45,559 nt of DNA from a bacterium (GTDB lineage: Bacteria > Verrucomicrobiota > Kiritimatiellia > UBA8416): NCBI GenBank assembly GCA_020048935.1, contig JAIFLS010000012.1:1-45559 (forward strand), read 5' to 3'. Positions 25,698-32,782 of the stretch are shown here, one piece after another. The first letter of the stretch is position 1; the number at the start of each line of letters is the position of its first letter. The position numbers were made by a program, and so were the translations under genes. The notes below the pieces were generated by a model. It made no database searches and had not been told where the DNA came from. It saw only the letters and a list, made by a program, of their open reading frames with translations.

Positions 25698-27137
25698 TTA
25701 GCTGGATCCGATATCGTGCGCGGCCATCATGCGGTAGAGCTTGGGTCGGCTAATGCCAAGGAGTCGGGCTGTGGCGGCAACGTTACTGTTGGCGGTGGCC
25801 AGCGCCCGCCGGATAAGGGTTGCTTCCGCCTCTTTGAGGTTAAGTGGCAAATCGCCGTCAGAGAACCGTGCGTCTGCGGCGGGAGGACTGCTGGCCTGCG
25901 GGCTCTCGGTAAGCGGGCCCTCGCAGTGGATATGGTTGGCGTAAATGGTTCCGCCACGGCACAGAATCAGGGCGCGCTCAACGATGTTCCTTAATTCGCG
26001 GACATTTCCAGGAAAATCATGTTTCGCCAGTGCTGCCAATGCCGTGTCATCAAATTCAGAGGGTGGAATCCCCATTTCCGTGGATATCAGTTTATTGAAA
26101 TGGTGTGCAAGAAACGGTATTTCCGTTCTCCTCTGCCGTAGCGGGGGGAGGGTGATGGTATAGCCAGCCAACCGGTAATAGAGATCGGAGCGAAATTTGC
26201 GGTTGGTGATTTGGTCCGCGATATTGGCATTGGTGGCCGCCACAATGCGCACGTTAACCTGTCGAGCCTTCGGGGCGCCAACCGCTGTGACGGCCCCATC
26301 TTCCAGAACCCGGAGGAGTTTTGTCTGCATTTCGAGGGGCATATCGCCAATCTCATCAAGAAAAAGGGTCCCGCTATCGGCAAGCTCGAAGCAGCCTTTG
26401 CGATCGGCAACTGCACCGGTAAAGGCCCCCCTGATATGCCCGAACAGGGTTGATTCAGCGAGTTCGGCCGGCACCGCCGAACAATTGATCGGCACGAATG
26501 GATTACGTGCTCGTGCACTGCCGAAATGGATGGCTCGCGCGATCAGTTCCTTGCCCGTGCCGCTTTCGCCTGTGATCAGGACCGAAGTGGCGGGCGACTT
26601 GCAGATGAGCTGGACATCATGCATCACCCGCTTCATGGCCGGTGACTGGCTGACCATGCCGGAAATCCCGCTGCGTTCGCGTTCCTGCCCGGATAAAAAC
26701 GAGACTTGAGCAGCCAGCAGATCGCGTTCCTCTGCGACCTGCCGGTAACGCAAGGTCCGGCTGATGGTCTGGGTGATCATATCCTTATCAACGGGTTTCT
26801 CGAAAAAATCAAACGCGCCTAGTTTCAGTGCCTTGATGGCGTCCTCTTTGTCGGCGGTTCCGGTAATGACGATCACATCGGTCTGAGGGCTGATTTTCTT
26901 GGCTTTTTCCAGGACATCATGACCGGACAACCCCGGCATGCAAAGGTCGGTGATCAGGATATCAGCGGGCGTGTGCGCCAGGGACTCAAGGCAGGCGATC
27001 GGATCGGTATACACCGTTGAATGGCAGTCAAGCAATTTAAGATAGGATCGGATCGTAATGCCAATGCGCTGGTCATCATCCAGAATCACGACATGGACCT
27101 GGCGCGATAGGGATTTCGCTTCAACTTCCATGGGCAT
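25698..27137 (-). CDS. Sigma-54-dependent response regulator (NtrC family: REC + AAA+ + Fis-type HTH)
   Basis: The REC part reads VVILDDD ... ILITDLCMPGLSG ... FFEKPV. The Walker A is GESGTGKELIARAIH. The sigma-54 contact loop GAFTGA is intact, and DEIGDMPLEMQTKLLRVLE follows. The C-terminal HTH reads NVAATARLLGISRPKLYRMM. Confidence 0.92.
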   Translation of the reverse strand: MPMEVEAKSLSRQVHVVILDDDQRIGITIRSYLKLLDCHSTVYTDPIACLESLAHTPADILITDLCMPGLSGHDVLEKAKKISPQTDVIVITGTADKEDAIKALKLGAFDFFEKPVDKDMITQTISRTLRYRQVAEERDLLAAQVSFLSGQERERSGISGMVSQSPAMKRVMHDVQLICKSPATSVLITGESGTGKELIARAIHFGSARARNPFVPINCSAVPAELAESTLFGHIRGAFTGAVADRKGCFELADSGTLFLDEIGDMPLEMQTKLLRVLEDGAVTAVGAPKARQVNVRIVAATNANIADQITNRKFRSDLYYRLAGYTITLPPLRQRRTEIPFLAHHFNKLISTEMGIPPSEFDDTALAALAKHDFPGNVRELRNIVERALILCRGGTIYANHIHCEGPLTESPQASSPPAADARFSDGDLPLNLKEAEATLIRRALATANSNVAATARLLGISRPKLYRMMAAHDIGSS

Positions 27138-27175
27138 CTCCGGGGTTGTTGCATCTGGCTGGCATTGAAAAACCG

Positions 27176-28231
27176 TTATTTCTCATCGGCGGCGGCGTTG
27201 AGTAAGGCGTCACCGATGTGTTCCAGCGGCAGCGATGTGCAAACGCCGCCACATTCGACCGCTTTTTTCGGCATGCCGTAGACCACCGATGTGCTTTCGT
27301 CCTGCGCAATTGTGTAGGCACCGGCGTTCCGCATTTCGAGCATTCCTTCCGCCCCGTCATTGCCCATCCCCGTTAGAATGGCGGCGGCAATGTTTGCGCC
27401 TGCAAAGCGTGCAGCGGACTTGAAAAGGACATCCACGCTCGGCCGTTGCCGACAGACCAACGGCCCCGTGCGCACATCCACATAATAGCGCGCCCCGCTG
27501 CGTTTTAGCAACACATGGTAGTTTCCTGGAGCCAGAAGTGCCACTCCGGGAATAACGGAATCGCCATTTTGAGCCTCGCGAACTTCGATTGCGCAGAGTT
27601 CATTTAAACGGTCGGCGAACGTCTTTGTAAAGTAAGCCGGCATATGTTGCACGATAACGGTACCCGGTGAATTGGCTGGAAACCGTTCAAGCACGGTACG
27701 AATGGCCTCTGTCCCGCCGGTTGATGCTCCGATGACAATGATTTTATTTGTTGTTCGGCCAATCGACAGGCGCGGCGGGGGAAGTGTTGCCACCTTTGGC
27801 GTCGCGGGGCTGGTGGCGGACCGTATACGCGCCCAGCGTGCCGCCCGGATGCGCTCGACCAGTTGCTCTGTCATCTCGGCGACGCTGTAGGCGGAGCCCG
27901 GCTTACACATGACATCAACAGCCCCTGCCTCCATCGCTTCTAGGGCCATGGCGCTGCCCTTGGCTGTCAACGACGAGACAATGATCACCGGCATCGGCTT
28001 GTGCCGCATCAGTTTCTTGAGAAAGGTGACGCCGTCCATGCGGGGCATTTCAATATCCAGGAGCAGGACGTCTGGTTTTAGCTGGACGATCTTGTCGCGG
28101 GCAACGTAGGGGTCCGGTGCCGTACCGACAAGATCGATATCCGGGTAACGCGCCAGTTCGCGTGCCAGCACCTGGCGCACAATGGCCGAATCATCAACCG
28201 CCAGAACGCGAATACAATTTCCGTCTTTCAT
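27176..28231 (-). CDS. cheB: CheB methylesterase, second copy
   Basis: Motifs are [14 protein letters not shown] ... [33 protein letters not shown] and GMGNDG. Confidence 0.93.
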
Positions 28232-28704
28232 GCAATGGTCTCCTTTTGAGGCGGCAGAAAACGTGCTACAGTTTGCCTAAGCATCTTTGCATCAACCGGT
28301 TTCATCATGATATAGCTGGGTTTGATGGCAGCAAGCCGTCTTTCAACTTGCGATTCCGAATATCCGCTGATCAAGATCACACGGATTTGCGGGTTCATCT
28401 GGTAAATAGTGTGGAATACGTCGCAGCCGTTCATATCCGGCAGCAACACGTCCAGCAGCACCAAGTCAATGGTGCCGCCGTCTGCGCGAACGCATTCGAT
28501 GGCCTCCTGTCCGGTACTGGCGGTGATAACCGTTACGCCCGTCCGCCGTAAAACCCTGGCGCTAACCCGGCGCAACTGGTCGTCGTCTTCGCAAAGCAGA
28601 ACGGTTCCCACCAGTCGAAACGCTTCCCCGTCATTCTCACTATGGGCGCTGCCGCCTGAAGGCGGAACAACAAACACCTCAGTGGTTGGCGATTGGTTTG
28701 ACAT
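28228..28704 (-). CDS. Single-domain response regulator with an N-terminal ~35-aa extension
   Basis: VLLCEDDD ... [12 protein letters not shown] ... LISGY ... MMKPV are receiver motifs. It overlaps the cheB start by 4 bp. Confidence 0.8.
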
Positions 28705-31484: not shown

Positions 31485-31487
31485 GCT

Positions 31488-31967
31488 CTAGAACTCACTT
31501 TCCACGCCGGAGGACCGAAGTGTGCAGCGCCCGCTGCCGATTTCGAGCCTTAACGTTCTTGATAAGGAGCCGCCGACCTGCTCGGCCTTGATCATCAATC
31601 CGTTTTTCCACAGGATCTTACGAAGCACCGTGTGGTTACGCTCCCCGATTCGGAAGAGGTTGCTGTTGTCCAGAATCCGTGCGCAACCGGCGACCTTTAT
31701 TATGGCGCGCGATCGGTTTACGCCGAGATCGAAGAGCATGGTGAGGAATTTCATCATTCCTGAATCAACAAACATAAACGGCTTCACTTCCGCTTTCTGG
31801 GGGTCAACGCTCGCGATCGGCAGCATGCAGTGAATGATGCCGCCTACCTGCACGCCGGGGTCGTATATGGCAACGCCTACGCATGAGCCCAGTGAGTAGG
31901 TGACCAGGACGTCATCGGGTTTATTCGAAACCTTACCGTCGGCTATATCAATTATTATCTGACTCAT
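31488..31967 (-). CDS. cheD: CheD deamidase, second copy
   Basis: Motifs are SLGSCVGVAIYDP and GGIIHCMLP. It overlaps cheR by 4 bp. Confidence 0.85.
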   Translation of the reverse strand: MSQIIIDIADGKVSNKPDDVLVTYSLGSCVGVAIYDPGVQVGGIIHCMLPIASVDPQKAEVKPFMFVDSGMMKFLTMLFDLGVNRSRAIIKVAGCARILDNSNLFRIGERNHTVLRKILWKNGLMIKAEQVGGSLSRTLRLEIGSGRCTLRSSGVESEF

Positions 31968-32782
31968 TTTATGTACACCGACGGTTTAACGCTGCGGAAA
32001 TTCCCCAGCATGCCCGATAAGCTTTCCGCATGCCCGACCATCAGGATGCCGCCGGGTTTCAATAAGCGCCATATCTCATCGAGCAGTCCTTTCCTGACTT
32101 TGTTATCGAAATAGATCATGACATTGCGGCAGAATACAATATCGAACGGGCCTTTCATCGGATATGGCGGTCGCGCGAGATTCAAGCGGGCAAAGGAAAG
32201 CATGCGGCGCAGTTCATCATTCACGACATAGCTGCGGTTGGCGGCGTCTGCCGGTTCTTTCCTGAAGAACCGGCGGGTCATGGATTCGGGCACCTTTTCG
32301 AGATGCCGCGGTTCGTAGCGACCGGCTTTGGCAACATCAAGCGCGCGCGTGGAAATGTCCGTGGCCAGAATCTTGAAGTCGCTAACGTCGGGAATCGCGG
32401 CTCTTGCCGTCATGGCGATGGTATAGGGTTCCTCTCCTGTCGAGGAGGCGGCGCACCAGATGCGATACGAGCGCTGGCCGCCGCCGTGCCATTGCTGGAG
32501 CAGCTCGGTGAGCAACTGGAAGTGATGTTCTTCACGAAAGAAGTAGGTGACGTTGGTGGAAATGGCGTTAAGCATCTCGACAAGCTCGTCGCCGTCCTTA
32601 TCGTCCTTTACCAGACGATAATACTCCTCATAACGGCCAATCCCGAGCGCTCGCATGCGTTTCCCCATGCGCGAGGCCACCAGCGCTTCCTTCTGCGGAC
32701 CCAGATGGATGCCTGCCTTGTCGTAGACAAGCTCGCAAAACCGGCTGAACATTTCGGCACTTAAATTTTCATTATTATTCAT
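31964..32782 (-). CDS. cheR: CheR methyltransferase, second copy
   Basis: Motifs are TNVTYFFRE, IWCAASSTGEEPYT, FCRNVMIYFD and GGILMVGHAE. Confidence 0.93.
   Translation of the reverse strand: MNNNENLSAEMFSRFCELVYDKAGIHLGPQKEALVASRMGKRMRALGIGRYEEYYRLVKDDKDGDELVEMLNAISTNVTYFFREEHHFQLLTELLQQWHGGGQRSYRIWCAASSTGEEPYTIAMTARAAIPDVSDFKILATDISTRALDVAKAGRYEPRHLEKVPESMTRRFFRKEPADAANRSYVVNDELRRMLSFARLNLARPPYPMKGPFDIVFCRNVMIYFDNKVRKGLLDEIWRLLKPGGILMVGHAESLSGMLGNFRSVKPSVYIK

Follow-up and report, generated by a model that had tools for sequence, protein, structure and literature searches.

The stretch of DNA analysed here, hereafter the window, is the 45,559-nt contig JAIFLS010000012.1 (GenBank assembly GCA_020048935.1) of a bacterium of the Kiritimatiellia (Verrucomicrobiota). 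Between positions 25698 and 32782, its minus strand carries a tightly packed, chemotaxis-like operon of nine genes, in the order cheR2-cheD2-HDOD-cheY2-HDOD-cheX2-REC-cheB2-EBP, where REC denotes a receiver domain and EBP an enhancer-binding protein, the activator of sigma-54-dependent transcription that ends the operon. Neither the kinase CheA, nor CheW, nor a methyl-accepting chemotaxis protein (MCP) is encoded there according to Pfam. With a probability estimated at about 0.6, this 7-kb stretch consists of two functional units lying side by side: one half of a split chemosensory system, termed che2, and a sigma-54/protease unit to which the activator belongs.

Genes and features of the locus

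The nine open reading frames (ORFs) were all verified on the minus strand at their coordinates (Table 1). Their successive junctions are a 4-bp overlap, gaps of 3, 29, 44, 55 and 9 bp, a second 4-bp overlap, and a 38-bp gap. An earlier note on this DNA had described this gene content and order, with a packing of 4-bp overlaps or 3-55 bp gaps, and ORFs and Pfam domains bear it out. The lack of cheA, cheW, and mcp in the operon, which it had also reported, is equally confirmed; over the whole window, two CheW queries yielded no tblastn match to a stand-alone CheW, and the sole MCP is a truncated one at 3-866 (tblastn match 3-314), part of another chemotaxis cluster, che1. Domains and catalytic residues agree with the set of adaptation enzymes (CheR, CheB, and CheD) and the CheX phosphatase listed in the same note, and the GAFTGA loop that it described as intact in the activator is present in the sequence.

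By comparison with the structures 6ymz and 1a2o, the Ser-His-Asp triad of CheB2 is intact (GASTGG, QHMP, and GNDG), and this protein scores 423 bits against the NCBIfam model of its CheB subfamily (cutoff 293). CheD2 keeps the Cys/His pair of the Thermotoga maritima CheD 2f9z (LGSCVG and HCMLP), and the motif D-x3-E-x2-N of CheX2 (DAIKEWSN) aligns with the CheX structures 3hm4 and 3iic. CheY2 has the Asp/Asp/Thr/Lys set, and all the receivers of the operon, including that of the activator, retain the acidic pocket, the phospho-acceptor Asp, and the Lys. The CheR2, CheB2, CheD2, and CheX2 enzymes look functional.

The activator has the features of the NtrC family, namely a phosphorylatable REC, an AAA+ domain with GAFTGA and Walker motifs, and an HTH_8 domain. 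Its ORF as annotated comprises 479 aa, and the catalogued protein begins two residues later; the likely start is the second ATG, at 27131, which gives 477 aa, as in all orthologues, and has a GGAG 9 nt upstream. With this start, the gap between cheB2 and the EBP gene is 44 bp and contains neither hairpin nor terminator, so that the activator and the che genes are probably co-transcribed. The 200 bp upstream of the EBP gene from five lineages were also aligned in search of a separate promoter, which gave only noise (48% mean identity).

Table 1. Features of the window, with the operon first, followed by the protease unit, the candidate kinases, and the remaining genes and sites
Feature	Position	Strand	Assignment
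cheR2	31964-32782	-	Pfam CheR_N+CheR (E=1.5e-57); receptor methyltransferase; first gene of the operon
cheD2	31488-31967	-	Pfam CheD; receptor deamidase; 4-bp overlap with cheR2
HDOD3	30597-31484	-	Pfam HDOD (E=1e-45); conserved slot CheD/HDOD/CheY
cheY2	30166-30567	-	Pfam Response_reg; single-domain response regulator
HDOD4	29249-30121	-	Pfam HDOD (E=7e-55); second HDOD protein
cheX2	28714-29193	-	Pfam CheX (E=4.5e-10); CheY-P phosphatase
REC_d	28228-28704	-	Pfam Response_reg; extra single-domain receiver; 34-aa N-terminal extension; 4-bp overlap with cheB2
cheB2	27176-28231	-	Pfam Response_reg+CheB_methylest; receptor methylesterase with receiver; last che gene
EBP	25698-27137	-	Pfam Response_reg+Sigma54_activat+AAA_lid_14+HTH_8; NtrC-family sigma-54 activator
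Perfect dyad, TGT-N10-ACA type	25649-25666	-	Putative activator binding site
Sigma-54 -24/-12 promoter	25547-25561	-	About 45 nt upstream of the protease ATG
5'-UTR hairpin	25507-25540	-	Pairs the GGAG ribosome-binding site; minimum free energy -15.4 kcal/mol, z = -4.8
Protease gene	24827-25501	-	Secreted transglutaminase-fold cysteine protease (LapG/BTLCP-like), weak Pfam; apparent sigma-54 target
REC-HK-REC	22896-24635 (probable start 24530)	-	Pfam REC-HisKA-HATPase-REC hybrid kinase; candidate cognate kinase of the EBP
CheA2	15067-17676	+	Pfam; N-terminal region, two Hpt domains, then P3-P4-P5
REC_c	17724-18212	+	Receiver after CheA2
che1 cluster	3-7906	+	MCP-hemerythrin, REC, CheA1, CheR1, CheB1, CheD1, HDOD, REC, CheX1; complete
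DnaJ-like gene	7911-8453	-	
Signalling genes	8570-18212	+	Histidine kinase (HK) with three receivers, DUF3391, HDOD, HK-REC-Hpt, CheA2, REC_c
DUF3391 gene	11559-11909	+	
Three hybrid kinases	18178-24635	-	PocR-PAS-HK, PAS-HK, REC-HK-REC
Flagellar genes	from 32956	+	DUF2225, fliOPQR, flhBA, flhFG, fliA
Sigma-54-type site	34026-34040	+	Just before fliO; orthologous sites L001 5618-5632 (-), L029 8681-8695 (-)
Sigma-54-type site	36369-36383	+	About 85 bp before flhB; orthologous sites L001 3301-3315 (-), L029 6277-6291 (-)
CheX3	43247-43753	-	Pfam; with CheY3, adjoins fliA and the flagellin gene
CheY3	43782-44162	-	Pfam
Flagellin-like gene	44297-45286	+	

The che2 genes and their probable kinase

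The che2 genes were compared with 160 loci, obtained by scanning species-representative genomes with CheA2 and metagenomes with CheB2. The ORFs of these loci were labelled by BLAST similarity to the window proteins, complemented with selected Pfam scans; many of the loci are metagenome bins, whose labels are used as deposited. A conserved cluster was found with the order CheA-(MCP)-CheW-CheR-CheD-HDOD-CheY-CheX-CheB-(ComFB-HDOD-DnaJ-like-DUF3391). In the Desulfobacterota loci with enough downstream sequence (L014, L015, L018, L019, L021, L025, and L028), a CheA2 orthologue precedes, on its own strand, an MCP and/or CheW gene, after which come orthologues of some or all of CheR2, CheD2, HDOD3, CheY2, CheX2, and CheB2, in the order of the window. 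ComFB, a second HDOD protein, a DnaJ-like protein, and DUF3391 often come after CheB in this phylum, and Pfam supports the CheW, MCP, and ComFB assignments. The same arrangement occurs in loci of the Ignavibacteriales, Myxococcota, and Acidobacteriota, and on several metagenome contigs. L047 is another example of this cluster type.

These clusters resemble che2 more closely than che1. CheA2 is 47-54% identical to the CheA heading them, with bit scores about twice those of CheA1; the CheR of intact Desulfobacterota clusters shares 52-54% identity with CheR2, compared with about 37% with CheR1, and the CheY of the corresponding slot shares 47-53% with CheY2. In five loci (L018, L019, L021, L025, and L028), each component scores 1.4-2.2 times higher against the che2 copy than against the che1 copy, and the CheR-CheD-HDOD-CheY-CheX-CheB order is shared with the window, bar the insertions of HDOD4 and REC_d. 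As a CheA2 orthologue heads the intact cluster, the che2 system appears to be split rather than deprived of a kinase, and CheA2, 8 kb away on the opposite strand, would be this kinase. The earlier note had regarded the operon as having no dedicated kinase, which this arrangement does not support. Its designation of CheA2 as the nearest candidate proved pertinent, both through these clusters and through L001, where the CheA2 orthologue is encoded upstream of an EBP orthologue.

Like the Desulfobacterota-type cluster, the window has the CheR2-CheD2-HDOD3-CheY2-CheX2-CheB2 series, with 28-63% identity and always higher values for che2 than for che1, and the two also have in common a second HDOD protein, a DnaJ-like protein, and DUF3391. 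Unlike that cluster, the window has its kinase detached and on the other strand, and is devoid of a che2 CheW, MCP, and ComFB (ComFB was not found anywhere in the window). HDOD4, 38-40% identical to its orthologues in L018, L019, and L105, has moved between CheY2 and CheX2, whereas its position in the Desulfobacterota is after CheB-ComFB; REC_d precedes CheB2, and the EBP follows it.

The split seems to be general in relatives from the Planctomycetes-Verrucomicrobia-Chlamydiae (PVC) group. L010 has CheA2-REC_c only; in L029 and L030, genes for a large kinase and for an HDOD protein come after CheA2. The CheA2 orthologues of L001 and L029 are encoded divergently from DUF2225-fliOPQR-flhBA, in the slot that cheR2 fills in the window. 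In the PVC relatives, REC_c always follows CheA2; its divergent receiver domain scores 45 bits in Pfam, the proteins of L001 and L010 are 57-60% identical to that of the window, and an N-terminal extension of about 35 aa (MRIxKDPvLDaWELAES...) is conserved in the window, L001 (9426-9911), and L010 (1946-2428). The DUF2225 gene, whose product has a zinc-ribbon-like N-terminus, is the first gene ahead of fliOPQR-flhBA in all the PVC relatives examined, with 40-91% identity (window 32956-34005 (+), L001 5652-6680, L029 8712-9830, and L171 1483-2523). It is always divergent from the che2 genes and may be an uncharacterised flagellar or chemotaxis accessory gene. A shared divergent promoter was considered and discarded, the gaps after DUF2225 (up to cheR2 in the window, and up to cheA2 in L001 and L029) not being recognisably homologous when aligned; a sigma-28 promoter before cheR2 was likewise discarded, with matches at chance level and none inside the gap.

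The HDOD and CheX content of the operon, presented in the earlier note as part of an undescribed combination, appears to be normal for this cluster type. CheD-HDOD adjacency is found in 23 of the 160 loci, from several phyla, and CheD-HDOD-CheY in 11 of them; the che1 cluster of the window also carries HDOD, REC, and CheX. In the searchable literature, no paper naming or describing this cluster type was found, nor any match to HDOD, chemotaxis, CheX, and CheD jointly, and HDOD proteins are reported only as affecting swimming. The cheA3 operon of Desulfovibrio vulgaris was not retained as a guide to the class: it is a different operon, with parA, and with cheA last. A fixed HDOD slot between CheD and CheY-CheX across several phyla, not described in the searchable literature, constitutes a defined context for the role of HDOD proteins in motility.

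Other parts of the window recur in these clusters. CheY3 and CheX3 homologues (41-46% and 25-27% identity, respectively) open the L014, L018, and L026 clusters, upstream of the CheA2 orthologue. DnaJ-like homologues (43-46% identity) stand at the distal end of intact clusters (L015, L018, L027, and L105), a DUF3391 homologue (29% identity) is present in L018, and the DnaJ-like and DUF3391 genes of the window are near CheA2. Because of the recurrence of the DnaJ-like and DUF3391 genes, the whole signalling region at 8-33 kb in the window would seem to derive, by rearrangement, from a single ancestral supercluster. ComFB is encoded directly 3' of CheB, ahead of HDOD, in L018 (13549-13872) and L025 (8891-9250), and DUF3391 is often N-terminal to HD-GYP domains. 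Read against this background, the recurrence of HDOD, ComFB, and DUF3391 hints at a nucleotide second-messenger input to this cluster type.

The activator, the protease gene and the hybrid kinase

An EBP gene paired with the protease gene occurs in the window, L171, L001, L002/3, L006, L007, L004/5, and L170; beyond L171, the EBP orthologues and homologues are 55-69% identical to that of the window. Those of L001, L002/3, L006, and L007 (65-69%) are followed by the same small transglutaminase-like gene; in the more distant L004/5 and L170 (55-57%), such a protease gene lies 1.3-2.3 kb downstream. In the EBP tree, the window protein branches off first within the orthologue clade, and L001 occupies an intermediate position. 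Altogether, the activator or its target is found beside the protease gene in about eight lineages, most of them without che genes nearby, and L002/3, L006, and L007 (four loci, three lineages) contain no che or flagellar genes within 10 kb.

The gap between the two genes contains a perfect dyad, CTGTCCGC-CT-GCGGACAC, which occurs once in the window and is found at the same position in L001, L002, L006, L007, and L175. It is followed by the promoter sequence TGGCACGATCACTGC, whose core, TGGCA-N7-TGC, is invariant in an alignment of the gap from five lineages, and also precedes the protease gene in L004/5, L170, and L175. In this alignment, the dyad, the sigma-54 core, and a hairpin in the 5' untranslated region (UTR) are conserved amid diverged sequence. 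An equivalent hairpin was obtained in six of seven lineages (z from -2.3 to -6.3), despite changes in its arms, e.g., GACUCCGU/ACGGAGUC, CUCCGU/ACGGAG, and CCUGU/ACAGG (5' UTRs of L001, L002, L005, L006, L007, and L171 compared). RNAalifold predicted no pairs in the protease 5' UTR from the MAFFT alignment, in which the arms are out of register, and the UTRs were, therefore, folded one by one. The hairpin could be a translational gate or an RNA thermometer.

The protease has 224 aa, with a signal peptide, and its GDCED motif (Cys123), His155, and SSNG motif are invariant. It scores 26.0 bits against Peptidase_C93, below the cutoff of 27, and matches the sequence of the PDB entry 4u65 with E=0.24. 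Its AlphaFold2 model has a mean pLDDT of 68 (80-94 in the core), and the best Foldseek matches are 3isr, LapG (4fgq/4u65), and CPR-C4 (7ob6), with E values around 1e-4 and TM-scores of 0.33-0.45. This model, of moderate confidence, suggests a transglutaminase-like fold with catalytic Cys and His. The family is a narrow one: 13 homologues among 5.8 billion proteins. A 53-aa ORF located after the protease gene is unlikely to be a gene; its conservation extends only to near-identical relatives.

With LapG/BTLCP proteases (4fgq and 4u65), the protein has in common the signal peptide, the predicted fold, the conserved Cys and His, and the small size. Nevertheless, the sequence similarity is marginal, the TM-scores are modest, the family is very narrow, and no LapD or LapA partner was seen here; in addition, control would be exerted through sigma-54 transcription, whereas LapG relies on sequestration via c-di-GMP and LapD.

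The synteny with the protease gene, the conserved cis-elements, and the loci without che or flagellar genes within 10 kb argue that the conserved role of the EBP is to drive the adjacent protease gene. This would place it among NtrC/AtoC regulators with an adjacent target, with which it shares the REC-AAA+(GAFTGA)-HTH_8 architecture, a TGT-N10-ACA dyad, and a neighbouring -24/-12 promoter. It differs from them in that no curated NCBIfam equivalog is reached at cutoff, the candidate partner kinase has an unusual architecture, and the target is a secreted cysteine protease with an mRNA hairpin occluding the Shine-Dalgarno sequence.

This candidate partner, REC-HK-REC, is encoded two genes downstream of the EBP, on the same strand. 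Homologues are found immediately upstream of an EBP homologue in L004/5 (42% identity over 541 aa), L168 (46%, cut by the contig end), and L169 (38%), and a copy lies downstream of the protease gene in L175 (61% over 534 aa). Because this association is broader and extends over several lineages, REC-HK-REC is favoured over CheA2 and is the most likely phosphodonor of the EBP. In the distant homologues, the gene directly downstream of the activator is a histidine kinase preceded by TGGCA-N7-TGC (L170 1686-1700 and L168 2273-2287), which points to positive autoregulation of the kinase as an element in the logic of this regulator family.

The junction between cheB2 and the EBP gene is real and conserved in this lineage, and restricted to it among the sampled sequences. 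L173 and L174, which belong to the same species as the window (99.8% nucleotide identity), keep it together with CheA2. L171 (93% nucleotide identity) has exactly the layout of the window from fliQ to the kinases, junction included. Its che2 proteins and EBP are 84-97% identical to those of the window (97% for CheR2 and 96% for the EBP), and its protease 91%. REC_d, not found in the cluster of other phyla, is the fastest-evolving gene of the operon (84% in L171, against 91-97% for its neighbours). An EBP lies within 10 kb of this che cluster type in about 7 of the 160 loci, which, considering how rich in EBPs some phyla are, is judged to be no more than chance. Two apparent recurrences of che genes followed by an EBP were rejected: in L092, the protein has no receiver, stands after a 282-bp gap with no protease gene next to it, and is not orthologous, and in L038 no protease gene was seen, and the EBP-like ORFs reach no more than 41% and 33% identity.

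Two probable adjoining units and the competing explanations

In the favoured explanation, the first unit (27176-32782) would be the adaptation and signal-termination half of the split che2 system, comprising CheR2, CheD2, CheB2, CheY2, CheX2, two HDOD proteins, and an extra receiver. Its kinase would be CheA2 with the partner receiver REC_c (15067-18212), and the ancestral state a single cluster, still intact in the Desulfobacterota and other phyla. Receptors encoded elsewhere in the genome, outside the window, would signal through CheA2, probably with a CheW also encoded outside it. CheA2 would phosphorylate CheY2 and/or CheY3, CheB2, and perhaps REC_c and REC_d; CheX2 would dephosphorylate CheY, while CheR2, CheB2, and CheD2 would adapt the receptors, with the HDOD proteins acting at some step. 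The output is most likely the flagellar motor, reached through CheY. The earlier note had instead proposed sigma-54 transcription as the output; nevertheless, the operon retains CheY2 and CheX2, flagellar export genes adjoin the CheA2 orthologues of L001 and L029, and the EBP is part of a distinct conserved EBP/sigma-54 promoter/protease unit, found mostly without che genes.

The second unit (22896-27137) would be a two-component system, in which the EBP, with REC-HK-REC as its main phosphodonor, binds the dyad some 100 bp before the promoter, remodels the sigma-54 holoenzyme at 25547-25561, and activates the protease gene, the mRNA of which would be further gated by the hairpin hiding its Shine-Dalgarno sequence. 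A dedicated non-Che kinase, mentioned in the earlier note as something that would refute its reading, is supported at the level of conserved synteny (L004/5, L168, L169, L175, and the window). EBP mRNA would be delivered by read-through from the cheR2 promoter region, and such co-transcription would tie EBP dosage to chemotaxis expression without making the EBP the output of the pathway.

Several observations weigh against this explanation. L001 has, after flhA-flhB-fliRQPO-DUF2225 and divergently from them, CheA2 (56% identity), REC_c (57%), the EBP (67%), and the protease in one co-directional row, with gaps of 32, 89, and 177 bp. Che2 genes, therefore, directly precede the EBP in two lineages, via different halves of the system. 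In L171, REC-HK-REC has lost 279 and 930 bp, leaving a 152-aa remnant, while the EBP, protease, and che genes are intact, so that this kinase would be dispensable there. No promoter was identified between cheB2 and the EBP gene. The flagellar role of che2 is read from synteny, i.e., from flagellar genes in L001 and L029 and from the CheY3-CheX3 pair, and all the evidence used here is comparative, consisting of orthology, synteny, and conservation. The remnant of REC-HK-REC is a DHp fragment (L171 10972-11430 and L172 1280-1738), and the neighbouring PocR-PAS kinase of L171 is without its first PAS domain; the set of sensory kinases seems to be turning over fast while the che, EBP, and protease genes are kept.

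Some of these observations nourish a different explanation, in which CheA2 phosphorylates or dephosphorylates the EBP receiver, alone or with REC-HK-REC, so that receptors tune sigma-54 transcription of the protease gene. The row in L001, the terminator-free 44-bp junction kept in L171, L173, and L174, and the purifying selection on the EBP of L171 despite the decayed kinase all fit it, and the two Hpt domains of CheA2 could serve different receivers. There is also a precedent, since Che3 and the classical kinase CrdS of Myxococcus xanthus act jointly on the NtrC-like CrdA (Willett & Kirby 2011, PMC3147164). As in that system, an NtrC-family activator stands here beside che genes; a classical histidine kinase is proposed as its main phosphodonor, and CheA might modulate it in addition, a CheA2-EBP link being suggested here by synteny. 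Nevertheless, the Che3 cluster has MCPs, CheW, and CheA, and is without CheY (PMC3147164), whereas the operon studied here is devoid of MCP, CheW, and CheA and includes CheX2 as well as two receivers with intact phospho-acceptor residues, CheY2 and the extra REC_d. The conserved partners of the EBP are the protease gene and REC-HK-REC, mostly away from che genes: L002/3, L006, L007, L004/5, L168, L169, L170, and L175 have the EBP-protease unit without nearby che genes, and the intact che cluster of other phyla is without such an EBP, the one that stands directly after cheB, in L092, not being orthologous. As both the window and L001 have the DUF2225/flagellar location, the adjacency to che genes may be a single inherited state, i.e., one accident rather than two events. 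We, therefore, hold this explanation to be distinctly less probable than that of two adjoining units. A dual input of the Che3/CrdS/CrdA kind retains an appreciable probability, and a more elaborate version, slightly more doubtful still, would have a flagellar-type CheA2 and REC-HK-REC jointly set EBP phosphorylation, with chemoreceptors controlling the sole conserved target of the activator, a LapG-like protease that processes surface proteins or adhesins, and, thus, a motile-to-attached switch via sigma-54. If this were true, the joining of the EBP to the cheR-cheB operon would be the genomic trace of the coupling.

It is improbable that the EBP is the flagellar sigma-54 regulator of the lineage (FlrC/FleR/FlgR-like), expressed together with chemotaxis genes and driving flagellar operons besides the protease gene. 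It does adjoin the flagellar export cluster in the window, L171, and L001, and is the sole EBP in the 45-kb window, where TGGCA-N7-TGC is enriched (9 sites versus 2.9 +/- 1.7 expected, with 0 of 100 shuffles reaching 9) and where the sites preceding fliO (34026) and flhB (36369) have conserved counterparts at the orthologous positions of L001 and L029. However, the conservation of these two sites can be explained by coding sequence, as the former overlaps a possible start codon and the latter lies within conserved fliR codons, and the dyad was not found near the flagellar candidate sites. The EBP orthologues of L002/3, L006, and L007 have no flagellar genes nearby, and L029 has a flagellar cluster with no EBP in 22 kb. 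The family models do not support a simple FlrC/FleR/FlgR orthologue either, an alternative raised in the earlier note: the EBP scores 305 bits for FlgR and 276 for FlbD (cutoff 750 for both), lower than for the generic NtrC and AtoC models.

Even less credible is a cheR2-cheB2 operon that no longer works with CheA2, and that either serves the che1 receptors (3-7906) or is being lost. Neither che2 fragment of the window is accompanied by cheW or mcp, and che1 is complete from MCP to CheX, as this explanation would have it. It is weakened by the catalytic residues of che2, which are all intact, by the proteins of L171, whose 84-97% identity at 93% nucleotide identity indicates purifying selection, by the retention of CheA2 together with the distal operon in L173 and L174, and by the divergence between che1 and che2. 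The latter amounts to 31% identity for CheA, 38% for CheR, 52% for CheB, 34% for CheD, and 25% for CheX, values that point to ancient and distant paralogues (25-52%).

With the explanation of two adjoining units, what looks like a kinase-less Che pathway with transcriptional output would be a rearranged split cluster to which an unrelated two-component unit is attached, and operon content alone would be no guide to pathway content. The compact conserved unit made up of REC-HK-REC, the NtrC-type activator, dyad, sigma-54 promoter, hairpin, and protease offers a clean system in a poorly known phylum. As the EBP adjoins che2 genes in two lineages, in one of which the alternative kinase has decayed, crosstalk between Che and two-component systems like that of Che3-CrdS-CrdA would be possible.

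Regarding the other sigma-54-type sites, the fliO site is 13-14 nt from a possible ATG, which would imply a leaderless transcript or reflect conserved coding sequence. With the longer consensus TGGCAC-N5-TTGCW and two mismatches allowed, 24 sites were found versus 26.7 expected, so that only the stricter core is informative. A sigma-54 site close to the consensus, TGGCACTGGATCTGC (44332-44346), falls within the annotated 5' end of the flagellin-like ORF; since the Flagellin_N match does not begin before residue 37, translation may in fact start further downstream, and the gene may be sigma-54-dependent. No Rfam family matched in the window. The closest homologues of the window are labelled Kiritimatiellia, Verrucomicrobia, Lentisphaerae, or Victivallales, which by itself marks the source as a member of the PVC group, probably of the Kiritimatiellota. 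In the window, two Hpt domains are present in each of CheA1 and CheA2, and the MCP of che1 carries a hemerythrin domain, a fusion suggestive of a sensor for oxygen or iron.

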